Source: an uncultured Gammaproteobacteria bacterium (GTDB lineage Bacteria; Pseudomonadota; Gammaproteobacteria; SZUA-229). From it: 51,460 nucleotides of DNA. Numbering within the stretch: position 1 is the first letter of the stretch; each line of letters opens with the position of its first letter. Shown piece after piece: positions 1-19,478 of this stretch. Location of the stretch: positions 1 to 51,460 of the forward strand of contig CALLCZ010000024.1 in assembly GCA_937998645.1 (NCBI GenBank). Reading direction: 5' to 3'. Position numbers and translations under genes: made by a program. The notes beneath the pieces were generated by a model. It saw nothing but the letters and a program-made list of their open reading frames with translations, ran no database searches and had not been told where the DNA came from.

Positions 1-2285
<2,285 letters not shown>

Positions 2286-2364
2286 TCAGGCTTTTAAGCA
2301 CAATACGTTGTAGCGACACACTACTGTTAGATAATATAAATACACTATCTCAAAACAGAGAACT

Positions 2365-3435
2365 TTAATTCATATTCCCCTGTTCCACGTGGAACATGCG
2401 AACATCAGACCAACCCTGCAGATCTATTTGATCTGGTTCTATAGCAGACAGAAATAGCTGTATCGGCATCGACTTTAAAACCGACAATATTTGTTTTCGA
2501 TGCTCTTTGTCCAGTTCTGCGGCCAGGTCATCGTAAAGAAGTATGCAATGCCGTGCTGCTGATTGACTGAACTGCTGAACCTGCGCGAGTTTCAACAAAG
2601 CCACCAGCACCTTTTGTTGGCCACGCGATATTCCTGTCTGAGCTGATTTTCCATCGACCTGTATATATAAATCCGCCCTGTGTGGACCCGCCTGAGTCAT
2701 TCCCCTTTTCAAATCCCGTTCAAACGTCTGTTCCAGCACAGTTCGAAGACTTTCTTCTTTTTTCCAGCCTCGCCTGTACTCCAGCTTCACATGCTGACTC
2801 GGAAAGAACTGCTCAATCAGGTTCAGATAGAACGGATAAAGATCCTGAATGTATTTTTCTCTTTTAAGATCGATATGATTTGCTGACTGTTCGAGTTCCT
2901 TATCCCAGAGTTTGCAATAAGACGGTTTTTGCCCGGATCTTAGTGCTGCATTCCTTTGTGACAATGCTTTCTTGTAGCGCTGCCAGGCTTCAAAAAAACC
3001 CTGTTCCACGTGGAACACCCCCCAGTCTATATATGCTCTTCTTTCACCTGGACTACCTGTAATCAGCCGATAACTGTCAGGGTGTATCGCCAGAACTGGA
3101 AATATAGCGGTAATATCGGCAACGCGCTGTATGGGTTTCTGGTTCGCGCGAACTTCGAGTGAGTCTTTGCTTCGTTCAATCCCGATGGGAATTTGATTAT
3201 CGAGTTGATCTGTTGCTTTTGCCAGTAACTGCAGACGGCTGGCATGGTGATTGATCAGATCTGAAAGATAGGGTGTTCTGAAAGATCTTAAGTGGCTTAA
3301 ATAATAAATAGACTCTAACAGGCTGGTTTTACCGGAAGCATTCAGACCATAAACGAGGTTAACGCCGCTACAGGGTTCAAATTCAATATCGACAAGATTA
3401 CGAAAATCACGAATCTTAAGATGTGATAATTGCAT
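2365..3435 (-). CDS. recF: DNA replication/repair protein RecF
   Basis: Walker A GLNASGKT, SFRT, SRGQQK, LLYDDLAAELD motifs; dnaN-recF-gyrB synteny. Confidence 0.97.
   Translation of the reverse strand: MQLSHLKIRDFRNLVDIEFEPCSGVNLVYGLNASGKTSLLESIYYLSHLRSFRTPYLSDLINHHASRLQLLAKATDQLDNQIPIGIERSKDSLEVRANQKPIQRVADITAIFPVLAIHPDSYRLITGSPGERRAYIDWGVFHVEQGFFEAWQRYKKALSQRNAALRSGQKPSYCKLWDKELEQSANHIDLKREKYIQDLYPFYLNLIEQFFPSQHVKLEYRRGWKKEESLRTVLEQTFERDLKRGMTQAGPHRADLYIQVDGKSAQTGISRGQQKVLVALLKLAQVQQFSQSAARHCILLYDDLAAELDKEHRKQILSVLKSMPIQLFLSAIEPDQIDLQGWSDVRMFHVEQGNMN
2381..2396. promoter_or_regulatory. parS site (TGTTCCACGTGGAACA) inside recF
   Basis: Perfect 16-bp parS consensus palindrome; parAB present in the window. 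Confidence 0.9.
3002..3017. promoter_or_regulatory. parS site (TGTTCCACGTGGAACA) inside recF
   Basis: Second perfect parS palindrome, 621 bp from the first. Confidence 0.9.
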
Positions 3436-3486
3436 GAAAACCGCTTTTTGTACTGAAGAACAATCTGATACCCAGATACCAGATTC

Positions 3487-3803
3487 TAACCCGCATTTCT
3501 TACCGGGATTTCGGATTCAGGTGCATCTGTAGTGTTTCTGAGTGCGCGTCTGGGCTGAAAAGCATAGCCATAGCTATGGTTTGATGGACTAATTCGCCTG
3601 GAGCGAATTAGTATGCCTATGCACCCGAAGGGTGAAACACAGGGACGTGTTTCATCAACATGCGTGCTGAGGGACGCTACAGATGTGCATGAAACGAAAT
3701 AGCGCCCCACCAAATAGACTATATTAGAATGAAATCGAGTTTCTGGTTTTCTAATCATACTGTTACTCGGGAGATACAGCGGCCTGGTGAGAAATGCGGG
3801 TTA
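3487..3803. mobile_element. MITE-like non-autonomous element with terminal inverted repeats and nested hairpins
   Basis: TAACCCGCATTTCT (3487-3500) and AGAAATGCGGGTTA (3790-3803) form a perfect 14-bp IR, extendable to 21 bp with 2 differences; terminal TA on both sides; internal 29-bp stem and several small hairpins; no transposase. Confidence 0.7.
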
Positions 3804-3807
3804 AGTA

Positions 3808-4908
3808 CTATAACCTCATCGGCATAATGACATACTTGCAATCAGGGTGGTCCGGGTATGTCATCAGGCAACTGCTGTTAGAGTCTCTTAAAGTACTCTG
3901 TACCGTGCTTGCATCAGTTACATTGAGTACATCGAGCATGTAATTAACATTGAAGCCGATCTCCAGCGTATCACCCGTATAGTTGACCTCTACTTCAACA
4001 TCAGCCTCTTCCTGGTCCGGGTTCTGAGCCTGCAGCAGCAAAATATCACCTTCAACAACCAGCCTTATGCCACGGTATTTTTCATTCGACAGGATGGATG
4101 CCCTGACCAGGGCCTGGCGTAGATTTTCTCTATCGGCAATGATTCTATTTTTTCCGTCTTCCGGTATGACTCTGTTGTAATCAGGAAAGCGACCGTCGAT
4201 TAATTTAGATGTAAATCTAATATTTCCAACTTCAATTCTTATGTGGTTGCTTCCCAGAAATATTTTCAAGGGTTCTTCGCTGTCCTCGAGCAGTCTGACC
4301 AGTTCCTGAATGCCCTTTCTGGGTACTATGACCTGTTTGATTTCAGCCAGATCACAGTCAGCCTGTTTTTCACAATAAGCAAGCCGGTGACCGTCTGTTG
4401 CAACTGCACGTATTAAACCCGTACTGACTTCCAGCAAAAGACCATTAAGGTAATAGCGTACATCCTGTAAAGCCATCGCGAATGAAGTCTTGTCGATCAA
4501 CTCTTTTAATGTTGTCTGAGGTAACTCAAATTCCGCCACGGTATTGATTGAATCCAGTGATGGAAAATCTTCAGCTGGCAAAGTTGAAAGTGAAAATCGG
4601 CTTCGACCCGATTTAATCATTGCCTTATTAGAATCTACTGTAATGCTAATACTTGATTCTTCAGGAAGCGCTTTGCATATATCAAGCAACTTCCGGGCAG
4701 GTAATGTGGTGTCACCCGCCTCATCTGCAACCATGTTCAGCGTGGTTACCAGTTCGATTTCCAGGTCTGTTGCCGTAAGGGATATTTTATCTTTATCAGC
4801 CTTGATAAGGATGTTGGACAATGCCGGCATCGTCTGGCGTTTTTCTACAGCACCGATAATTTTTTGTAATGGGATTAACAGATCTTCCCTCTGGATCTGA
4901 AATTTCAT
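3808..4908 (-). CDS. dnaN: DNA polymerase III beta sliding clamp
   Basis: MKFQIQREDLL start, QDVRYYLNG, ATDGHRLA, SKLIDGRFPDY, YVIMPMRL end. Confidence 0.98.
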   Translation of the reverse strand: MKFQIQREDLLIPLQKIIGAVEKRQTMPALSNILIKADKDKISLTATDLEIELVTTLNMVADEAGDTTLPARKLLDICKALPEESSISITVDSNKAMIKSGRSRFSLSTLPAEDFPSLDSINTVAEFELPQTTLKELIDKTSFAMALQDVRYYLNGLLLEVSTGLIRAVATDGHRLAYCEKQADCDLAEIKQVIVPRKGIQELVRLLEDSEEPLKIFLGSNHIRIEVGNIRFTSKLIDGRFPDYNRVIPEDGKNRIIADRENLRQALVRASILSNEKYRGIRLVVEGDILLLQAQNPDQEEADVEVEVNYTGDTLEIGFNVNYMLDVLNVTDASTVQSTLRDSNSSCLMTYPDHPDCKYVIMPMRL

Positions 4909-4914
4909 GCGAGC

Positions 4915-5150
4915 TACCTATTAGTATTATTTTTTATATATCTATCTAGTATTTATAATTAGTAACAGTCATTTCTGTGGATAAATCTAATATTATTAAT
5001 ATAATCAATTACTTAAGTTGTGAATATTAAAGCACTTAGTGGGAACTCAGCAGAGCTTTACTGTAGATGATCTGTGGATAACTTTTCAAGCTTTTATTGT
5101 CTACACTTTATCCACATTACACACACAGCTCATCTAGAGCTTGTTATTCT
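4915..5150. other. Probable replication origin oriC (dnaA-dnaN intergenic)
   Basis: Perfect DnaA boxes TGTGGATAA 4976-4984 and 5073-5081 and TTATCCACA 5108-5116; degenerate boxes at 5019, 5062, 5097; IHF consensus AATCAATTACTTA 5003-5015; very AT-rich DUE-like tract 4919-4965. Confidence 0.8.
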
Positions 5151-5153
5151 GTG

Positions 5154-6545
5154 CTAATTACTCAGAATCCGCATCATATTCATATAGTCTTCGTTAATTT
5201 TTGCATCAGATTCGCGCAATTCGGCTATTTTACGGCAGCCATGCAATATGGTGGTATGGTCTCTTCCACCAAAAGCCTCTCCGATCTCGGGCAAACTGTG
5301 GTTGGTAAGCTCCTTGGATAAGGCCATGGCGAGTTGTCTGGGGCGCGTAATCGAACGGCTGCGGCGATTGGATAGCAGATCTGAACTGCGTATCTTGTAA
5401 TATTCCGCAACGGTTTTCTGAATGTTTTCTATGGTTACGATACGGTCCTGTAAGGCAATCAGGTCGCGCAGAGTCTCCTTGGCAAATTCCATGGTTACCG
5501 GTTTACCGGTGAAATTAGCGGTTGCCATGACGCGACGGAAAGCGCCTTCAAGTTCTCGAATGTTGGAGCGAATGCGCTTGGCGATGAAAAATGCCACTTC
5601 ATTCGGAAAGTGAATACCTGATTCTTCTGCTTTTTTCTGCAGAATAGCGACACGGGTTTCCAGTTCGGGGGGTTCAATACAAACCGGTAATCCCCAGCCA
5701 AAGCGCGATCGTAATCTTTCTTCCAGGCCATCGACTTCTTTCGGATAACGGTCGCAGGTAAGGATGATCTGGTGCCCGCCTTCCAGCAATGCATTGAAGG
5801 TGTGGAAAAATTCTTCCTGCGAGCGCTCTTTGCCGGCAAAAAACTGGATGTCATCGATCAGCATGCAATCGAGAGAGCGGTAGTACTGTTTGAATGCGTC
5901 TATGGCATTGTGCTGCAAGGCCTTGATCATATGGCCGACAAAACGCTCTGAATGAAGATAAACAACTTTTGCATCGGGGCGATGCTTGAGCATCATGTTG
6001 CCGACTGCGTGCATCAAGTGGGTTTTGCCCAGTCCGACACCACCATAGAGGAACAGCGGGTTGTACGCGTCCCCCGGATTTTCTGCGACTTGCTGTGAAG
6101 CTGCTTTGGCCAGCTGGTTGGATTTACCTTCTACAAAGCTTTCGAAGGTGAAGGCAGGATTCAGGTTGCTGTCTATGGCCTGCCTGGGTTTCGCAACTTT
6201 TGTCGGAATACCAAAATCCGTGACAGGTGCAGATTTTTGCGGGGCTACGGGTTGGGGTTTTACAGGGCTTTCAGTTGCTGGTGCCGGTTTTGCCGGGCTT
6301 GATTGGGTGCCAATCTCAAGCAGTAAATTGACATCATCATCGCGGGAAACCTCGAGCAGAATATTCTCGATCTTGTCCCTGAAGTTCTGTTTTACCCAGT
6401 CGAGTACAAAACGATTGGGCGCCAGCAAGGTCAGTTGATGGTTATCCTCGCGTACCTGTAAAGGGCGAATCCAGGTATTCAGCTGTTGGTCAGACAGCTC
6501 CTGTTCAAGTCTTTGCAGACAATTCGTCCATAGTGCATTGTTCAC
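5154..6545 (-). CDS. dnaA: Chromosomal replication initiator DnaA
   Basis: [30 protein letters not shown] motifs; start set at GTG 6545 (VNNALW), preceded by GGAGG, rather than the track's 6635. Confidence 0.98.
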
Positions 6546-7259: not shown

Positions 7260-7489
7260 TAGCACTGATAAAACTGTATCGTTATACGATCAGCCCTTAT
7301 CTGGCACCAAGCTGTCGTTATACGCCCACCTGCTCCAGTTATGCGATTGAAGCGGTTGAGCGTTTCGGAATTTTTCGCGGCAGCTGGATGGCGTTGCGTC
7401 GCATAAGCCGCTGTCATCCATGGCATTCCGCCGGCTATGACCCTGTACCTGGCAATAACAACCTGAGCATGACACGAAAGGATCACTGA
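7244..7489 (+). CDS. yidD: Membrane protein insertion efficiency factor YidD
   Basis: [22 protein letters not shown] motifs. Confidence 0.95.
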
Positions 7490-9174
7490 TGGAAAACCAG
7501 CGCCTGTTGTTGTATTTCACCCTGTTTTTCATCAGCTACCTGTTGTGGGCAGAGTGGCAGATGGATTATGGGCCGAAGCCGGAAGCGACTGTCGCCGAGG
7601 AAACAACACAAACCCTGAAACAGGATATCGCTGAAGTACCCGAAGCAGCAGCCACCCCGGATGAGGTGGCCTTTGTCGAAAGTAGTCAACAGCAGCAGGC
7701 CCACAGGCAGCGGATTAATGTCATTACCGATGTACTGGATATCGAGATCGATACCAGGGGTGGTGACATCAGAAAAGCAGTATTGCGCCAGTATTCGAAA
7801 ACAGCTGAAAACCCGGAAGAGAAACTGGTGTTGATGTCTGACACGGAAACCAACTTTTTCATTGCGCAATCCGGCCTGGTTTCTGTTAATGCTGATACTG
7901 CACCGACTCATAATGCTGTTTACGCTGCGGAAAAAACCGATTACCGGCTTGCTGAGGGCGTGGATGAAATCAGGGTGCCGCTGCAATGGACGGGTGAAAA
8001 TGGCGTTCGCGTCAACAAGATATATACATTTCGACGTGGTGAATATGTAATCGATCTGCAGCATGCTGTAGAAGCCGGCAGCGAGAACTGGAGCGGTAGC
8101 CAGTATATGCAACTGGTACGCACACCGCCACTAGAAGATGACAGCAATGCCTTTATAAGAACCTATACAGGCGGCGTAATATTCAATGATGTCATCAAAT
8201 ATGAAAAAGTTGATTTTGAAGACATTGCCGAACAGAATTTAAAATCAACAATTGGCGATGGTTGCCTGAATATCAATAACAGTCAAAAAGGCTGTGAATT
8301 AACGGGTGGCTGGCTTGCGATGATGCAGCATTATTTCCTCGCTGCATGGATACCCGAAGCCGGTATTGATAACCTGTTTTACAGCAAGAACCCGTCCAAT
8401 ACCTATAAATATCTCCTCGGTGCGCGTTCAACAGCACAGAAGATTCCTGCTCAGGGTACGGGCAGTTTTAATACCCAACTGGTTATTGGACCAAAACTGC
8501 AAAACGAACTGGAACAGATTGCACCTGGTCTTGAGTTAACCGTCGATTACGGTGTTCTCACGATTATTGCGAAACCCCTGTTCTGGCTGCTCGATATTTT
8601 TCACGGCTGGTTTGGCAACTGGGGCTGGGCCATTATATTTCTGACAATTACCGTTAAAGCCATCTTCTATAAATTGTCAGAAATGAGCTATCGCTCTATG
8701 GCTAAGATGCGCAAGGTTGCACCACGCATCAAGCAGATGAAAGAACGCTTCGGGGATGACCGCCAGGCCATGAGCAAGGCCATGATGGACATGTACAAGC
8801 GTGAAAAAATAAATCCAATGGGTGGGTGCTTCCCTATTCTTGTACAGATGCCGGTATTCATTGCCCTGTACTGGGTACTGCTTGAAAGTGTTGAAATGCG
8901 TTATGCACCCTTCATCCTGTGGATTGATAACCTGTCTGCAAAGGATCCCTATTTTATTCTGCCGGTCATTATGGGCGTTTCAATGTGGATACAACAAAAA
9001 CTCAATCCGGCTCCCGTTGATCCCGTTCAACAGAAAATCTTTCAGTACATGCCCTTCGTGTTTACGGCCATGTTCGCCTTCTTCCCTTCCGGCCTCGTTC
9101 TTTACTGGGTGGTTAACAACATCCTTTCGATTGCGCAGCAGTATGTGATTACCCGGCGCATCGATAGAGAGTAA
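7489..9174 (+). CDS. yidC: Membrane protein insertase YidC
   Basis: [40 protein letters not shown] motifs. Confidence 0.97.
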
Positions 9175-9193
9175 AAATCTTTTAAATCCTTTA

Positions 9194-10528
9194 ATGGATA
9201 CTATAGCGGCAATAGCAACACCACCCGGCCAGGGAGGTGTTGGTATTGTGCGTGTCTCCGGACCACAGGTTATATCAATCGCGAAAGCAATCCTTGGTCA
9301 TTGCCCGCAGTCCCGCATGGCTGAATACCTGTCTTTTAATGATGAAACAGGCAGCGTTATCGATAAGGGCATTGCGCTGTATTTCAAACAACCAAACTCG
9401 TTTACCGGTGAAGACGTGCTGGAGTTGCACGGCCATGGCGGTCAGGTCGTTCTTGATCTGTTGTTGCAACAAACAATAAAGCATGGCGCGCGTGTTGCGC
9501 GTGCCGGTGAATTTTCAGAGCGTGCATTTTTAAATGAGAAAATCGATCTTGCACAGGCAGAGGCAATTGCCGATCTTATTGCCGCTGAAAGTGAAGATGC
9601 CGCTCGGGCTGCGATACGTTCACTCAAAGGCGAATTCTCATCCAGTATACATGCGCTTGTTGAACAGCTTGTTCAGTTACGTATGTATGTTGAGGCAGCA
9701 CTGGACTTTCCCGAAGAAGAAATAGATTTTCTTGCTGACAAAGCAGTTGCTGAGAAATTAAATACAATCAATACACAGGTAACCACTGTATTTGAATCAG
9801 CCAAACAGGGGTGTTTGTTAAAAGAAGGTATGACTGTTGTTATTGCGGGCAAACCAAACGCAGGAAAATCAAGTTTGCTTAATCAGCTTGCACAAAGCGA
9901 AACTGCAATCGTAACAGATATACCAGGAACAACACGCGATGTATTGCGTGAGCATATTCAAATTGATGGTTTACCGTTGCATGTTATAGACACGGCTGGT
10001 TTGCGCGAATCGGAAGATGTTATTGAACAGGAAGGTGTAAAGCGCGCATGGAAAGAAATAGAAAAATGTGATCGATTACTGTACGTCATCGATTCACAAA
10101 CAAAAGAAGTATTGCCAGAGGATATATATAAACAGATACCGGAGACCACCGGGTTAAGTATTGTATTTAATAAAACGGATTTGAGCGGGGAGGAAAACCG
10201 TGTAGTCGAAAAAGATAATAATACGGAGATTTATCTGTCAGCAAGCAGTGGTGAAGGCATTGATCTGTTAAGACGGCACTTAAAACAGTGCATGGGTTAT
10301 GAACGGCATACCGAAGGTCAGTTTATTGCAAGACGCAGACATATAACGGCATTGAACAATGCATCGAATTATTTAAACAAAGCATCACAATGTTTGAAAA
10401 ATAATACGGGGGAACTGCTGGCCGAAGAACTCAAGCTGGCACAAAATGAGTTATCGAGCATTACCGGTGAATTTAGTAACGAAGATTTACTAGGAAGAAT
10501 CTTCGCTGATTTTTGTATTGGTAAATGA
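9194..10528 (+). CDS. mnmE: tRNA modification GTPase MnmE (TrmE)
   Basis: [32 protein letters not shown]-terminus. Confidence 0.98.
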
Positions 10529-10539
10529 TAAAGAAGTTT

Positions 10540-10569
10540 TTAACCGCTGAGGCGCAGAGAACGCAGAGG
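10540..10569 (+). repeat. Left arm of an ACCGC(A/T)GAGGCGCAGAG-type REP-like repeat
   Basis: TTAACCGCTGAGGCGCAGAGAACGCAGAGG; resembles 16672-16696 and the reverse complement of 12929-12958. Confidence 0.65.
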
Positions 10570-10792
10570 TTTTTGTAGGAGCGGGTCTATCCATGAAAAC
10601 AGTCTGTATGATTCATAACTGTCATTATCTGTAATAATTCAGACTTAAATTGACACAATACATAGTTGCTTCATGATTAATCTGACAATTCATTCCTAAG
10701 ATGAATGACTCGAGTCACCCTGAAAGCAGACACTCTAGATTATTAGTTTAACTTCCGAAATACTGGGGCCAGACCAATTAGCAGACGGTCGT

Positions 10793-10824
10793 AAAATAAA
10801 AACGGCAGCCTTCGCGACTGCCGT
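10793..10824 (-). terminator. Rho-independent terminator of the 10864-11166 gene
   Basis: ACGGCAG-N9-CTGCCGT stem followed on the minus strand by TTTTATTTT. Confidence 0.65.
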
Positions 10825-10863
10825 ATTAAATAGCCTGGATTGATGTAATTCTTTATTAATTCT

Positions 10864-11166
10864 CTAAAGGACCTCAACCACTTCTCTAGTTGCCTCATAT
10901 AGCTTTACCAACTTGCCTTCTATGCGGATTGTTATCAAACCGCGTTTATCGACTGGCACCACTACCTGGCCATGTTGATAGATTTCCTTATCCAGCACCT
11001 CTCCTTTTGCCAACTTCTTTTGCCACCCAGGAGGGAGAGATTGACCCCTTTCAACTTTTTTCTGCAATCCTGGTGGTAATTGCTGATCCTTGTCTTTTTT
11101 TGCATATACTGGGCCCGCTATTAAACCGGCTAATACCAGCAGTGTAATAATGTGCTTGATTTTCAT
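10864..11166 (-). CDS. Small secreted hypothetical protein with repeated LPPG(L/W)QKK motif
   Basis: Signal-peptide-like MKIKHIITLLVLAGLIAGPVYA; LPPGLQKK and LPPGWQKK; start set at ATG 11166. Confidence 0.8.
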   Translation of the reverse strand: MKIKHIITLLVLAGLIAGPVYAKKDKDQQLPPGLQKKVERGQSLPPGWQKKLAKGEVLDKEIYQHGQVVVPVDKRGLITIRIEGKLVKLYEATREVVEVL

Positions 11167-11385
11167 AGTACTACGCATCCCTTTAGAAATGTTTCGGTCA
11201 CTGCGATGTGCCAGCACTGCCTACAAGGTCATTCAGAGAAGATTGGTCTGGCACATGCGGAATTTGATAATTTTCGTCAATTGCTGGACCCTGAAGATAG
11301 ATCGAGCTTTCTACTCAATTAATGGGCCTAAAACAAGTATAGTCCAATAATGATTATTGAAAGATTTTGTGATTACAGTTCTCAA

Positions 11386-11490
11386 TCAGCTTTCTTGAGG
11401 TCGATTTTAGTCATCTGGCGATAGAGATTGAGTTATACGGACCAAGAGTTTTCTGACCGCCAGCAATCGGCCATTATAGCTGCCGTTCGC
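11386..11490 (-). repeat. Cassette-boundary hairpin element, copy 1
   Basis: Minus strand GAACGGCAGC-TATAATGGCCGATT-GCTGGCGGTC hairpin right after the ORF stop, followed ~60 nt later by AAATCGACC. Confidence 0.55.
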
Positions 11491-11491
11491 G

Positions 11492-11854
11492 TCAACCTAC
11501 ACGGGCCGAGCTACGCCTGAGTTTCCAATTCGCCGCATACAGCGCCGCAATAAGAAATAGCGGGGTAGTCATCACGAAGTAGACCGATGTCGGAAAACGA
11601 CCCCAGCCCCACCCAATGTATACCACTGCAAGTACTGGGCATGCCAGAGCGCCAATCCATTCCCGACGCCACGCCGCGAAAACGAGCAATCCCAATATCA
11701 TGGACGGGATATTGTGAAGGACGAACCCAAACGCAATTTCCAACGCGCCTTTGCCCTCTTCAAAGACGTCGAAAGAGAAAATGACCAGGAATAGTGCGAA
11801 AACGATAAGCAACAGCCTTGGTGCCCATAGGAGGGCTTTTCTGCTTGTTGTCAT
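11492..11854 (-). CDS. Small 4-TM membrane protein of unknown function
   Basis: Four hydrophobic segments; W-x-x-R start of TM1 and WRREWIG loop; GAAGG RBS-like element upstream. Confidence 0.8.
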   Translation of the reverse strand: MTTSRKALLWAPRLLLIVFALFLVIFSFDVFEEGKGALEIAFGFVLHNIPSMILGLLVFAAWRREWIGALACPVLAVVYIGWGWGRFPTSVYFVMTTPLFLIAALYAANWKLRRSSARVG

Positions 11855-11901
11855 TATCTTTAACCTTCGTAGAGGGAGACACTAGAGTCTTTAGTGTAAC
11901 G

Positions 11902-11984
11902 GAAACATCTGCTATGTGTTGTTACCAGCCGGTTGACTGAATGCGGCTTTTTGACTATTCAGAAAAATCTCAGGTCTGCTAGGT
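11902..11984 (-). repeat. Cassette-boundary element, copy 2 (degenerate)
   Basis: Minus strand TAGCAGACCTG ... TAACAACACATAGCAGATGTT, aligning to AATCGACCCGAAGCTGCCATT of copy 3. Confidence 0.45.
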
Positions 11985-12335
11985 CAGGTTTGCCCGCGGA
12001 GTGTGTCGAGTTAGCATCCAGTAGATCAAATACAGAATCGTCGGCGGCAAAACTCCAATCCAGAACCACAGGCCAGACATCGACTCTGGCTGCAAGACAA
12101 ACTGAACTCCCACCCCCAGAACCACTATTGCGCCGCCCAGACCTTCACGCCAAAGGGCAATCGCGAACCCTAAGACCGGGCTGATCGGGAAGGCCAGGAA
12201 ATTTACAATATTACGCAAACCCTCGAGTCCCAAACCCTCATCAACAAGACTTCCTCCGAGCATGATCGAGACGAAAGCGAGAATCGCCGTACCCCAAATA
12301 CGAGCAATCCACCTAATCACAGTTGCTATCTTCAT
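11979..12335 (-). CDS. Small 4-TM membrane protein of unknown function
   Basis: MKIATVIRWIARIWG..., four hydrophobic segments, LWREGLGG loop; the track's upstream extension runs through a repeat and is probably not real. Confidence 0.75.
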   Translation of the reverse strand: MKIATVIRWIARIWGTAILAFVSIMLGGSLVDEGLGLEGLRNIVNFLAFPISPVLGFAIALWREGLGGAIVVLGVGVQFVLQPESMSGLWFWIGVLPPTILYLIYWMLTRHTPRANLT

Positions 12336-12410
12336 TTGTCTATTATACGTCTTCAAGTTCATTCGTAATGAGTAGCTCGGTGATCCAAGGTACTTCGGGA
12401 GTATTTCATT

Positions 12411-12475
12411 GAATGGCAGCTTCGGGTCGATTTCAGGAGTTGAGTATAAAATCATGTACGTCTGCTTATGAGTAG
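12411..12475 (-). repeat. Cassette-boundary element, copy 3
   Basis: Plus strand GAATGGCAGCTTCGGGTCGATTTC (12411-12434) and second half ACGTCTGCTTATGAGT (12458-12473). Confidence 0.55.
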
Positions 12476-12781
12476 TTTGAGTCAATGCTAACTATCAGGG
12501 TATTTCGGGAGCGGCATACTGTTCTGTCAGGGCAGGTCTGAGCTTCTATACATAATCCTGATTAAAATATATTAAACACTATTATTACAACTGATCAGAT
12601 AGTATTAACTTTAAAGGGACTTGAAATTACAGAACACAAATCATGCAACGTCCGCAGATAAATATGCCGGGCGCCACTGCTGCGCCACATAAGAGTGGTG
12701 CAGTTCAATTTAGGACTGTTAGTAAAACAATTTTATGTACCGCAGCGTTCAATGAACATGAAAATCAAAAACAGAAATTTA

Positions 12782-12868
12782 CGCCATACCTGCGAAAGCG
12801 GGTATCTCTTAAGTCCTTGAATGTGCAAAAAAGAGTGCCTGGAGATTCCCGCTTACGCGGGAATGACG
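12782..12868. repeat. REP/dRS3-like palindromic doublet (GTCATTCCCGCG..GCGGGAATC type)
   Basis: CGCCATACCTGCGAAAGCGGGTATCTC and inverted GAGATTCCCGCTTACGCGGGAATGACG, each itself a hairpin; the right arm contains ATTCCC-N8-GGGAAT. Confidence 0.8.
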
Positions 12869-12928
12869 CGTAAGTGTGACAGTAGTGGATCCGGATCCTT
12901 TACTTCTTTTTGTTGAATAACTTAATAT

Positions 12929-12958
12929 CCTCTGCGCTCTTTGCATCTTCGTGATTAA
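12929..12958 (-). repeat. Right (inverted) arm of the ACCGCAGAGGCGCAGAG-type repeat
   Basis: Reverse complement TTAATCACGAAGATGCAAAGAGCGCAGAGG matches 10540-10569 at 22/30. Confidence 0.55.
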
Positions 12959-12992
12959 ATCATCTGCTGTGATCAATCTATTCTGATAATCA

Positions 12993-13748
12993 TCAGGCTT
13001 TCATTAGCAGTGCGGTACCGCTCCCCAGCAGTAATACGCTAATCAACCTGACGAACGTGTCCCGGCCCAGAGCAGAGTGTATTTTGCCGCCGAAAAACAA
13101 ACCCAGCCCTGCGACAGGTACAGCCAGGGCCATATAACTCAACATTTCCAGCGTGTAGAACCCTTTCAATGCGTAGCCTGCCAGCCGCATTGCGCCATCG
13201 ATCAAAAACAGGGCGGCGAATGTAGCGCGGAAAGCGCTTTTATCGAGATGACGAAGGTTCAGATAAATAACGTAGAAAGGTCCGCCGGTACCAAACAAGG
13301 TACCAACGAAGCCGCCGAAAAAGCCTGACGGTACAGAAATGATCCGGTTTGCCTGACACAGTTTCATCGGCAGTAACTGGTAAATAGCAAATAATATGAT
13401 GAAACCACCTAGCGCAACTGAAAGCATTTCCGGTTTTACCGACTCCATTATATAAAGTGATACTACAACCCCTATCAATGAAAATGGCAGCAGCGGCCAG
13501 ATTTCATTCCATCGTATGGATTCACGATTATTCATTCCCTGGCTCGCCGAACCAAGATAATCAAGAAACACAACCAGCGGAACAACGATGGTTAATGGCA
13601 AGGTCAAAGCCAGTAGCGGAACCGCGATCAGTGCGGAGCCAAATCCGGCGACCCCTCGTACCATATAAGCAAAAAATAATACTGAAGCTGGAAACAGTAA
13701 CGACAGAACGGTTGTCGCCAGTTCCCCTTGGCTGGATATATCAATCAT
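12993..13748 (-). CDS. Sulfite exporter TauE/SafE family membrane protein
   Basis: GVAGFGSALIAVPLL and GTLFGTGGPF repeats, FRAT motif, about 8 TM segments; start uncertain (13748 or 13805). Confidence 0.85.
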   Translation of the reverse strand: MIDISSQGELATTVLSLLFPASVLFFAYMVRGVAGFGSALIAVPLLALTLPLTIVVPLVVFLDYLGSASQGMNNRESIRWNEIWPLLPFSLIGVVVSLYIMESVKPEMLSVALGGFIILFAIYQLLPMKLCQANRIISVPSGFFGGFVGTLFGTGGPFYVIYLNLRHLDKSAFRATFAALFLIDGAMRLAGYALKGFYTLEMLSYMALAVPVAGLGLFFGGKIHSALGRDTFVRLISVLLLGSGTALLMKA

Positions 13749-13874
13749 TGTTGGATCCTGAATTTTTGTTAATATCACCTGAAGATTGCTCGAAGCGGAT
13801 TGCATTAATTGCTTCGGAAGCGAATACTCCCCTAATTTGTACGATAATGAAATATAAAATTAGATCAATAGCTT

Positions 13875-14648
13875 ATGGCGCTTTGGTTACAATTCGGTTA
13901 CAAAAAAAACATTATGTTAGGTGTGCTTAATGGAGACACGATAGATATTTACAGCGGTGAGTTATTTAATGACCCGCAAGCTGTCGGCGATACCTGCCGA
14001 CTCGATGAAGTAGATATACTTATGCCCTGCACACCGGGAAAGATGCTCGCGCTGTGGAATAACTTTTATTCACGCGCCGAACATGAAGGATGGGACATAC
14101 CACCCGAGCCGCTCTACTTCGTTAAAACATCCAATTCGTTCAATGCTCACAAACTGCCGATTATTCGGCCACGATCCTATGACGGTCCGGTTTTCTTTGA
14201 AGGCGAGCTGGGCATTGTTATCGGTAAAACCTGTAGCCATGCTTCAGAAATGGAAGCCGCCGATTATATCTTTGGCTATACCTGCATCAACGATGTTACC
14301 GCTAAAGACATTCTGAAGCGTGATCCATCTTTTCCGCAATGGACACGCGCCAAAGGATTCGACACATTTGGCGTATTTGGGCCATACATTGCCACGGGCC
14401 TGGATGTGGATACACTTGTTATTCAATCCTGGTTAGACGGTGAGTTGTTACAGAATTATCCGGTAACGGACATGGTGTTCAGGCCACACAAGCTGGTAAG
14501 TATGATCTCGCAGGATATGACCCTGTATCCGGGTGATGTCATTGCCTGTGGAACAGGCCTGAATGCAACGGCCATGGAAGATGGTCAGACCATAGAAGTA
14601 TCTATCGATGGCATTGGCGTGTTATCAAATAAAATGGCAGCCACCTAG
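13875..14648 (+). CDS. Fumarylacetoacetate hydrolase family protein
   Basis: EGELGIVIG, GYTCINDVTA, WTRAKGFDTF, TLYPGDVIACGT motifs. Confidence 0.92.
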   Translation: MALWLQFGYKKNIMLGVLNGDTIDIYSGELFNDPQAVGDTCRLDEVDILMPCTPGKMLALWNNFYSRAEHEGWDIPPEPLYFVKTSNSFNAHKLPIIRPRSYDGPVFFEGELGIVIGKTCSHASEMEAADYIFGYTCINDVTAKDILKRDPSFPQWTRAKGFDTFGVFGPYIATGLDVDTLVIQSWLDGELLQNYPVTDMVFRPHKLVSMISQDMTLYPGDVIACGTGLNATAMEDGQTIEVSIDGIGVLSNKMAAT

Positions 14649-17388: not shown

Positions 17389-17594
17389 CGGTAATAAAAG
17401 ACTTTGGCTAACGAAAAGAGTTCAATCTATAAAGATCTAGATTAAAGCAATGAGTTGATGATGAACATTCTACCAAGGAGGTATGTTTGCAGACAGCCAG
17501 CAGAAAGGATCGTGGCTACTGTAAAAAACAAAAAGAAATAAGCGCATGATTACATTATAATTTGCGGTCTGAATATATTTTTCACCGGGCAATA

Positions 17595-19478
17595 ATGTTC
17601 TATAGCGACAGTTTTGATGTGATAGTGATTGGCGGCGGTCACGCGGGGACCGAAGCCGCGCTTGCTGCTGCACGCATGGGGGTCAAAACCCTGCTGCTGT
17701 CGCACAACATCGAAACCCTGGGGCAGATGAGCTGCAACCCTGCGATCGGCGGTATCGGCAAAGGCCACCTGGTGAAAGAGATCGATGCTATGGGCGGCGT
17801 CATGGCAAGGGCAGCTGACCGCGGTGGTATTCAATTCCGTATTCTCAACAGGCGCAAGGGGCCTGCGGTGCGCGCTACCCGGGCACAGGCTGACCGTGTG
17901 CTGTACAAGGCCGCTGTTCGACAGGCACTGGAAAACCAGCCGAATCTTTCCATTTTTCAACAGGCAGTAGATGACCTGATTATTGCCAGTGATGGCCAGG
18001 GCGATCGCGTCTGCGGTGTCATTACCCAGATGGGGCTTAAATTTCGTGCACCTGCGGTGGTATTGACTGTAGGCACCTTCCTCGGCGGCAAGATCCATAT
18101 CGGTGAAAGCCACCATGCAGGCGGCCGCGCCGGTGACCCGCCATCGATAACGCTGGCGCAACGCCTGCGCGAGCTGCCTTTTCGCGTCGGCCGCCTGAAA
18201 ACCGGCACCCCGCCCCGCATCGATGGCCGCAGTATCGATTACTCCGGTTTACAGCAACAACCGGGCGACGAGCCTGTGCCGGTGTTTTCCTTTACCGGAT
18301 CGGTCAGCGAGCACCCGCAACAGATCTGCTGCCATATCACCCATACCAACCAGCGCACACATGACATCATTCGCGGCGGTCTTGACCGTTCGCCTATGTA
18401 CAGTGGCGTTATCGAGGGCATCGGCCCACGTTACTGTCCGTCGATCGAGGACAAGATCGTACGTTTTGCGGACAAGGAATCACACCAGATATTTATCGAA
18501 CCAGAAGGCCTGAATACTCATGAGGTCTACCCTAACGGTATTTCGACCAGCCTGCCGTTTGATGTCCAGTTTGAATTCGTGCGCTCGATGAAGGGTTTTG
18601 AAAATGCCCACATCACCCGCCCCGGTTATGCGATCGAGTATGATTACTTTGATCCACGTGATCTCAGGGCATCGCTGGAAACCCGCTTTATCGGTGGCCT
18701 GTTCTTTGCCGGGCAGATTAACGGCACTACCGGCTATGAAGAAGCCGCGGCACAGGGTCTGCTGGCCGCGATCAATGCTACACGCCAGGTGCAGCAGCGG
18801 GAACCCTGGACACCTGCCCGTGACCAGGCCTATCTGGGTGTGCTGGTCGATGATCTGATTACTCGCGGCACCACTGAACCGTACCGCATGTTCACCAGTC
18901 GAGCCGAATACCGCCTGATTTTGCGCGAAGACAATGCCGATTTGAGGTTGACGCCTGTCGCACGCGAGATGGGCCTGGTCAGCGATGAGCACTGGGGGGC
19001 ATTTGCACAGAAAAGCGGTGCCATTGCACATGAGCAACGCCGTTTGAGCGGGCTTACGGTACTGCCCGATTCAGAACCCGGCGAGCAGTTATCCAGCTAT
19101 CTCGATAAACCGCTGTCACGCGATTACAAGGCCAGCGATTTACTGCGCCGCCCCGAAATTGACTATCAAAGACTCACTGCTGCAATTGGCGGTGCAGTCA
19201 GTGATGATGCCGTGGCAGAACAGGTGGAAATACAGGCCCGGTATGCAGGCTACCTGGAGCGTCAGCATGCCGAGATCGAGAAGGCGCGTCGTCATGAGCA
19301 GGCATCAATTCCAAACCTGATCGACTATCAATCCGTACGCGGCCTTTCGGCCGAGGTATGCCAGAAGCTATCGGATTATCGGCCCGAGACCATCGGTCAG
19401 GCCAGCCGTATTCCGGGCATGACACCCGCAGCAATATCATTGTTGATGGTGCATCTGAAAAAAACAGCTATGAAATAA
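17595..19478 (+). CDS. mnmG: tRNA uridine 5-carboxymethylaminomethyl modification enzyme MnmG (GidA)
   Basis: [48 protein letters not shown]; start set at ATG 17595. Confidence 0.98.

Follow-up and report, generated by a model that had tools for sequence, protein, structure and literature searches.

We analysed a 51,460-nt stretch of DNA, hereafter the window, from an uncultured gammaproteobacterium (assembly GCA_937998645.1, contig CALLCZ010000024.1). The genes yidC and mnmE (7489–10528, plus strand) form the 5′ side of a 2464-nt spacer, and a TauE-family gene (12993–13805, minus strand) forms its 3′ side, followed by further housekeeping genes and then by mnmG (17562–19478). mnmE and the TauE gene are neighbours, 28–641 nt apart, in all seven genus relatives that have both on one contig; the genes between them in the window, two of which were the subject of an earlier note on this DNA, are extra relative to the genus. 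The argument set out below is that 1921 bp of the spacer (10630–12550) are probably a single element of the mobile insertion cassette (MIC) type, derived from an insertion sequence (IS) of the IS481 family, carrying passenger genes and unable to move by itself.

Three small genes on the minus strand make up the coding content of this element. The first, orfA (10864–11166), encodes a small secreted protein of 100 residues with a signal-peptide-like N-terminus and LPPGxxKK repeats. Its product belongs to no Pfam family; a score of 33 bits against the CigR family is below the cut-off of 78. Gene 2 (ORF1, 11492–11854) codes for a 120-aa membrane protein of family DUF7670 (PF24709, E 5.8e-25, 88 bits, cut-off 29). 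Gene 3 (ORF2, 11979–12335) codes for 118 aa of the same family (E 3.1e-8, 34 bits, cut-off 29). These two co-oriented open reading frames (ORFs) lie exactly where the earlier note had placed them. They are very distant paralogues (BLASTP E 0.083) and the only DUF7670 genes in the searched assembly of this organism, which comprises 3.25 Mb in 196 contigs and is 94.5% complete. Among 97 genomes of the bacterial family, this one is also the only genome in which DUF7670 exceeds the cut-off. Single genes with 65–76% amino acid identity to gene 2 occur in Woeseiaceae and other gammaproteobacterial metagenome-assembled genomes (MAGs), one of them with 83% nucleotide identity over 337 nt. The idea that gene 3 is a regular tandem partner of gene 2 was discarded, as an ORF2-like gene stands beside none of the 33 gene-2 homologues.

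A terminator-like hairpin with a T-run (10802–10824, minus strand) lies 3′ of orfA and is the sole terminator-like site within 10500–13100. A TATAAT hexamer is found about 9 nt ahead of the ATG of gene 3 (12336–12350), and inspection by eye revealed no Shine–Dalgarno motif at this start. Either the mRNA of gene 3 may have no leader or translation may begin further upstream, where a TTG at 12485 opens a 168-aa frame.

Two inverted ends and their flanks

The three genes lie between two inverted members of one repeat family. The right member, E1 (12406–12550, plus strand, nhmmer E 4.8e-35), was discovered through a match of 12412–12518 to positions 267–373 of contig C35 of the same assembly (74% identity, E about 1e-12). 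It is about 145 nt long and closes with a terminal inverted repeat at 12524–12550. Across aligned copies its boundaries are sharp, with an outer end reading ...GTCTGAGCTACTACA, and the neighbours of the copies are unrelated housekeeping genes. Copies were found in 9 of the 97 family genomes with the locus copy as the query and in 10 with a more typical copy, the source genome included in both counts. A profile built from 23 copies detects four full copies in the source genome. Within the 2464-nt spacer this profile matches only 12406–12558 on the plus strand and 10623–10761 on the minus strand. The second match marks the left end, E1b (10630–10761, minus strand), a diverged inverted partner of E1 that aligns to profile positions 38–165 (E 3e-7 within the spacer, 4e-4 genome-wide) and carries its own terminal inverted repeat at 10630–10656 (TGTAATAATTCAGACTTAAATTGACAC). 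E1b-related copies are present in 14 of the 97 family genomes, again counting the source.

E1 and E1b finish with a shared terminal inverted repeat of 27 nt (TGTAGTAG...), which in its E1 form also recurs in several further families of short repeats. When up to 6 mismatches are allowed, this 27-mer occurs 58 times in the genome, compared to no occurrence of the reversed control. At up to 3 mismatches, 33 of the 401 genomes sampled from the class contain it, and the reversed control again gives none. Positions 10630 and 12550 delimit one of the inverted 27-mer pairs, 1921 nt long. About 100 nt inward of each terminal repeat are conserved and contain phased direct repeats (AGTTGAGCC, AGTTTGAGCCA and AGTCTGAGCTA). 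Two other views of E1 were examined and rejected. It is not a symmetric miniature inverted-repeat transposable element (MITE), since by eye its inner end has no inverted match to the outer end and its partner is the separate E1b; nor does it hold a small conserved ORF, since in the alignment, also judged by eye, stop codons and a 2-nt deletion break the sole open frame.

The terminal repeats are flanked by CATTATC on the left (10623–10629), which fits the pattern NNTNANN, and by CATAATC on the right (12551–12557). The two heptamers agree at 6 of 7 positions, as would the two sides of a target-site duplication. The same comparison was made for 19 inverted terminal-repeat pairs from the source genome and fetched loci (up to 8 mismatches, 100–8000 bp apart), with mismatched left and right flanks as the null (n = 342). 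Agreement at 7 of 7 positions was observed for 11 of the 19 pairs and for none of the null combinations. Agreement at 6 of 7 positions was observed for three pairs, 10630/12550 among them, and for three null combinations. Two pairs agree at 5 of 7 positions (null: 35 of 342) and the remaining three at 3 of 7 or fewer (null: 218 of 342). The duplications across these pairs fit NNTNANN.

The DNA beyond the two heptamers appears to belong to the old spacer. Just after the mnmE stop codon and outside the element lies an arm of the repetitive extragenic palindrome (REP) or bacterial interspersed mosaic element (BIME) type, built of CGCNRRGG-type units (10540–10574), with more than 100 blastn matches in the source genome (e.g., C69:10505–10557). 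The same arm opens the mnmE–TauE spacer of one genus relative (G003), which suggests that the insertion took place in the core of a REP-type palindrome. On the right side, 12563–12892 is occupied by further unrelated dispersed repeats of at least two families, with blastn matches on contigs C109, C80, C133, C76 and C37 of the source and in relatives. An ATTCCC-N8-GGGAAT palindrome near 12846–12869 recurs in several genus relatives. A 76-aa ORF at 12643–12873 overlaps these repeats, matches no Pfam family and is probably not a gene. Elsewhere in the genome, C69:10429–10733 forms a perfect 305-nt palindrome with two REP arms inside, IS481-type terminal repeats at its ends and flanks that agree at 0 of 7 positions.

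Recurrence of the ends and an autonomous relative

Pairs of E1b and E1 with outward-facing termini and no transposase of their own kind also enclose other genes. On contig C146 of the source genome (3210–5406) such a pair brackets a CHRD protein, a 90-aa membrane protein and an outer membrane protein (OMP) barrel. A 2.9-kb pair in G008 (C362) contains a PEP-CTERM protein and a DUF218 protein. G056 carries two pairs, one of 1.2 kb on C10 with a single 163-aa ORF and a perfect duplication (ATTAATT), and one of 1.3 kb on C7 with a PEP-CTERM protein and both termini eroded. A 7-kb pair in G034 (C102) holds nine genes. In nearly all cases, including the three genes of 10630–12550, the cargo is directed from E1 towards E1b. 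The same terminal repeats with a perfect duplication (GATTAGG) delimit a 5104-bp element in G264 (C9:13000–20300, locus positions 1092–6195), the cargo of which is a single gene for a 1587-aa STAND-like NTPase (weak nSTAND1 match), possibly a mobile defence gene. In the source genome, C35 (260–6582) shows the bracket with an IS3 element inside. In C35:1–6600 the bracket contains genes for an OMP barrel, a DUF4410 lipoprotein and a metallo-β-lactamase-fold protein, IS3-type orfA and orfB, a fragment of a tyrosine recombinase (208 aa) and a second gene of the TauE family; C35:2038–2097 resembles 10766–10824, the terminator region beside E1b.

The family extends to versions without genes. Non-coding elements of 195–437 nt with the same terminal repeat and 7-bp duplications occur in the source genome and in relatives, for example a 195-nt cargo-free version in G008 (C255, duplication TTTTATT). 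The source contigs C73 and C64 (first 140 nt) and C32 (1–27) have one of their ends within the same MITE; breaks in the assembly are thus partly due to these repeats.

An autonomous relative points to the source of these ends. In another gammaproteobacterium (G277:C24, 29520–30719), an inverted pair of the same terminal repeats delimits 1199 bp and encloses a single gene, which encodes a 369-aa transposase. This protein scores 279.3 bits against the IS481 model NF033577 (cut-off 224) and shows the Pfam domains HTH_29, rve and rve_3. The termini of this IS read TGTAGTAG...CTACTACA (TGT...ACA), and the 7-bp duplication on either side of them, CCTTATC, is perfect. The left end of the 10630–12550 element is identical to the left inverted repeat (IRL) of this IS at 23 of 27 positions, and its right end to the right inverted repeat (IRR) at 19 of 25. 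E1b copies share the ...CTGACACATTGC signature of the IRL, so that E1b is an IRL-type and E1 an IRR-type end. G042, a member of the same bacterial family as the source, has a transposase that is 77% identical to the one in G277 and is flanked by these terminal repeats as well. The assembly of the source itself contains no IS481-type transposase: a search with rve returned only the IS3 on C35, and tblastn with the IS481 transposase gave a best E of 0.78. Neither was a matching transposase found in 10 genus relatives, and contigs C73 and C64, which start in the repeat, carry ordinary genes and no transposase.

These observations suggest how the element may have come to its present place. An IS481-family DDE transposase supplied in trans would bind both ends, E1b and E1, and join them to an NNTNANN target that is cut with a 7-bp stagger. 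In this case the target would have lain in the AT-rich core of the REP-type spacer that separates mnmE from the TauE-family gene. Gap repair would then leave the 7-bp duplication, here CATTATC and CATAATC. The three passenger genes would be carried as one unit, with no recombination site for each gene. The present copy is probably old and immobile, a fossil, since each terminal repeat has 6 mismatches in 27, the duplication has one mismatch and the assembly encodes no matching transposase.

Alternatives to a single insertion

Several observations weigh against a single insertion. The match of E1b to the E1 profile is weak (20 bits). Both terminal repeats are degenerate, with 6 of 27 positions deviating from the consensus in each, and the duplication is imperfect by one mismatch, so that a single insertion event is what we infer from these remnants. 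Many E1 copies have no partner within the 1.5 kb fetched on each side, and with solo ends this common, chance pairing is not negligible. Three of the 19 pairs are without a duplication, including the perfect 305-nt palindrome on C69; some such pairs must therefore arise by other routes. The pair on C35 lacks the E1 terminus and holds an IS3, hence it is rearranged. Finally, no clean empty site can be aligned, because the spacers of the relatives are filled with different repeats. The seven spacers share almost nothing with the flanks, the exception being the REP arm in common with G003.

The strongest competing explanation, which we nevertheless consider unlikely, is that the bracket formed by chance. 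The genes would have arrived by illegitimate or repeat-mediated recombination, and E1b and E1 would be independent solo ends or truncated MITEs. This proposal gains from the common solo copies and the imperfect duplication just mentioned, and also from the nature of the spacer as a repeat hot spot, with the REP arm, E1b, E1 and at least two more families. The cargo is moreover a mosaic: orfA with its flanks (10861–11369) is 78% identical to an unrelated locus in G010 that has neither E1 nor E1b, and the DUF7670 genes have a GC content of 52% each compared to 42–44% around them. Chance would not account as readily for a flank match of 6/7, which was reached by only 3 of 342 mismatched controls. 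It would also have to provide two ends that complement each other as IRL and IRR types and both face outwards as required, and this arrangement of E1b and E1 recurs around other cargo in at least five instances spread over three genomes, two of the instances having perfect duplications. This recurrence, together with the 6/7 duplication, points to a single-event origin of the 10630–12550 element.

It is considerably less probable that E1, instead of being a transposon end, represents a gene for a small RNA or a leader that is retained ahead of genes and regulates them in cis. The sequence is kept across genera at non-syntenic places, and the gene at the inner side starts facing E1 in 10 of 15 copies, as this explanation would have it. 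However, for neither strand did RNAalifold arrive at a consensus structure of 13 E1 copies (−1.6 and 0.0 kcal/mol), E1 has no Rfam match and no terminator, the outer 27 nt are an IS481-family terminal repeat, and copies are flanked by 7-bp duplications. E1 as a structured RNA was rejected on the first two of these grounds. A consensus promoter scan of 10500–13100 gave two sites, none of them inside E1 (shuffle mean 4.8); a promoter inside a transposon end would in any case be compatible with insertion of the whole element.

The earlier note had proposed a different system, an integron-like array in which the two DUF7670 genes alternate with three copies of a two-part hairpin site, recombined in trans as folded single-stranded DNA. 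Parts of this description hold. No recombinase gene lies near the two ORFs, and the boxes of attC sites are absent (no RYYYAAC..GTTRRRY pair 50–150 nt apart on either strand of 11200–12650). The strings that the note quoted are present at their places, with the short proximal halves displaced by about 1 nt. The third site (12412–12433 plus 12459–12469) is real, but as the inner part of the longer dispersed element E1. Trans-acting capture of cassettes survives in so far as the locus looks like a mobile cassette without a recombinase of its own; the cassette would be one three-gene unit, and the machinery a double-strand DDE system.

Other parts did not withstand analysis. The three stretches are not recognisable as copies of one element, their best match being at the level of chance. 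The sole real resemblance, between CTTGAGGTCGATTTTAG (11394–11410) and CTTCGGGTCGATTTCAG (12420–12436), extends to 14 of 17 positions. Within 1451 nt there are 14 direct-repeat families of comparable quality, of which this is one, and its ungapped score is equalled by 77 of 300 dinucleotide shuffles. The supposed middle copy (11904–11924) fails to align with the other two. The intervals 3′ of gene 2 (11386–11491, minus strand) and between the DUF7670 genes (11855–11978, minus strand) are ordinary unique intergenic DNA, with no match to the E1 profile at E ≤ 100. Neither 11167–11491 nor 11855–11978 has a second copy in the 3.25-Mb genome, where blastn-short returned 13–17-nt chance matches. When up to 2 mismatches are allowed, the 14-mers of the note are found at 31 and 43 places, compared to 30 and 22 for the reversed-pattern control, and the two-part pattern AGCAGAC..AAATCGACC occurs once in the genome, at the locus itself. 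A motif without other genomic copies was the outcome that the note had named beforehand as refuting its proposal, and this is what we find; the specific proposal thus fails by its own test, and two of the three sites have no second copy at all.

Folding gave no better support. Compared to shuffles, the three sites as single-stranded DNA have z-scores of −0.14 (11386–11491), +0.11 (11855–11978) and +0.68, none of them better than random, and the 45-nt hairpin on its own (z −1.86) is matched by 9 of 200 shuffles. There is no array of alternating sites and ORFs, no hairpin signal and no boundary for individual genes, and nothing supports recombination on folded single-stranded DNA. The integron integrase model TIGR02249 has no hit over cut-off in the source genome (best 79 bits compared to 265); its four matching stretches fall in two Xer-like genes on C52 and C65. 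Rfam returned nothing at E ≤ 1 in 10000–14000. Four Y1_Tnp (HUH) genes, at C181:3402–3725, C142:2007–2336, C84:15772–16059 and C49:16938–17237, are unlinked to the sites. Their open frames of 184–237 aa are all above the Pfam cut-off, and they may encode REP-associated (RAYT-like) enzymes paired with the abundant REP arms. Even with small co-oriented ORFs that are absent from relatives, gene-2-type genes that occur singly in other genomes and four Y1/HUH transposase-like proteins to draw on, an integron-like array served by an unlinked recombinase or HUH nuclease is extremely improbable, given site similarity at chance level without a genomic motif family, an E1 profile that misses two of the three sites, folding like that of shuffles, and no attC-type pair, over-cut-off integrase or Rfam match in the regions searched.

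Comparison with known systems

A non-autonomous IS481 derivative, as we propose for 10630–12550, could be more than a decayed IS. E1b/E1-ended elements might form a dedicated gene-shuttling platform, although we regard this extension as doubtful. The conserved 100 nt or so would then provide transposase sites plus an inward promoter or regulatory site, and the conserved ends could serve as handles for swapping cargo by homologous recombination. Such a platform would explain the E1-to-E1b direction of the cargo and the enrichment in envelope proteins. If it exists, uncultured sulfur-oxidising Gammaproteobacteria would have in it a functional counterpart of integron cassettes that is built on transposons.

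The claim of a new recombination system is hereby removed. Its place is taken by a testable family of IS481-derived cassettes. All copies examined are transposase-less; the ends are defined, the target is 7 bp of the form NNTNANN, and the cargo varies, including envelope proteins and, in G264, the STAND-like NTPase. Since the terminal repeat occurs in 33 of 401 sampled genomes, small-scale gene gain in environmental members of the class may commonly proceed through such cassettes without being annotated as such. In fragmented MAGs the ends could serve as flags for accessory genes, and the repeat family accounts for some of the repeats that clutter and break up the present assembly. The result is an ordinary one for biology at large. 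Our literature searches returned no account of an IS481-derived MIC and none of DUF7670.

With integron cassettes, each of which carries at its 3′ end an attC site (an imperfect inverted repeat with core sites), the locus has in common small, promoter-poor, co-oriented accessory genes and the absence of an adjoining recombinase. In contrast to them, it lacks attC boxes, a hairpin signal, IntI and a site for each gene, and it is bounded by terminal inverted repeats and a duplication. HUH elements of the IS200/IS605 type have subterminal hairpins that are recognised as single-stranded DNA, and neither terminal inverted repeats nor a target duplication; the locus shows no excess folding but terminal inverted repeats with 7-bp duplications, and the Y1_Tnp genes are unlinked. 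MITEs are non-coding and a few hundred bp long, which applies to the elements of 195–437 nt with the same terminal repeat and 7-bp duplication; the element at 10630–12550, with 1921 bp and three genes, falls outside this class.

IS481 members have TGT...ACA termini and duplications of 2–15 bp, mostly 6 bp, according to PMC10045372; by this account the 7-bp duplication of the element is not of the commonest length. They can also carry cargo genes, as reported in PMC6794481. IS481 cargo transposons such as TnRErm46/ISRe46 of Rhodococcus equi share the TGT...ACA termini, and the autonomous relative of our element encodes an NF033577 transposase. Unlike these transposons, the 10630–12550 element has no transposase and is not self-mobilisable.

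The closest counterparts are the MICs, defined in PMC3913671 by inverted repeats, the lack of a transposase and a target duplication. MIC231 of Bacillus cereus and mic-qnrD of Proteeae plasmids have passengers, no transposase, IS-related inverted repeats, a target duplication and presumed mobilisation in trans. The 10630–12550 element likewise combines two IS-related inverted repeats with a duplication (6/7) and no internal or nearby transposase. It differs in that its ends derive from an IS481-family IS and not from IS231 (IS4 family) or the 24-bp repeats of mic-qnrD, in its 7-bp duplication and in its long conserved ends (130–145 nt, including the 27-nt repeat or beyond it). Its cargo consists of genes for envelope or membrane proteins and its host is an uncultured sulfur-oxidising gammaproteobacterium, with a mobility that is deduced from sequence. 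The 10630–12550 element is best read as transposase-less mobile DNA of an already known type, to which it adds an IS481-derived member.

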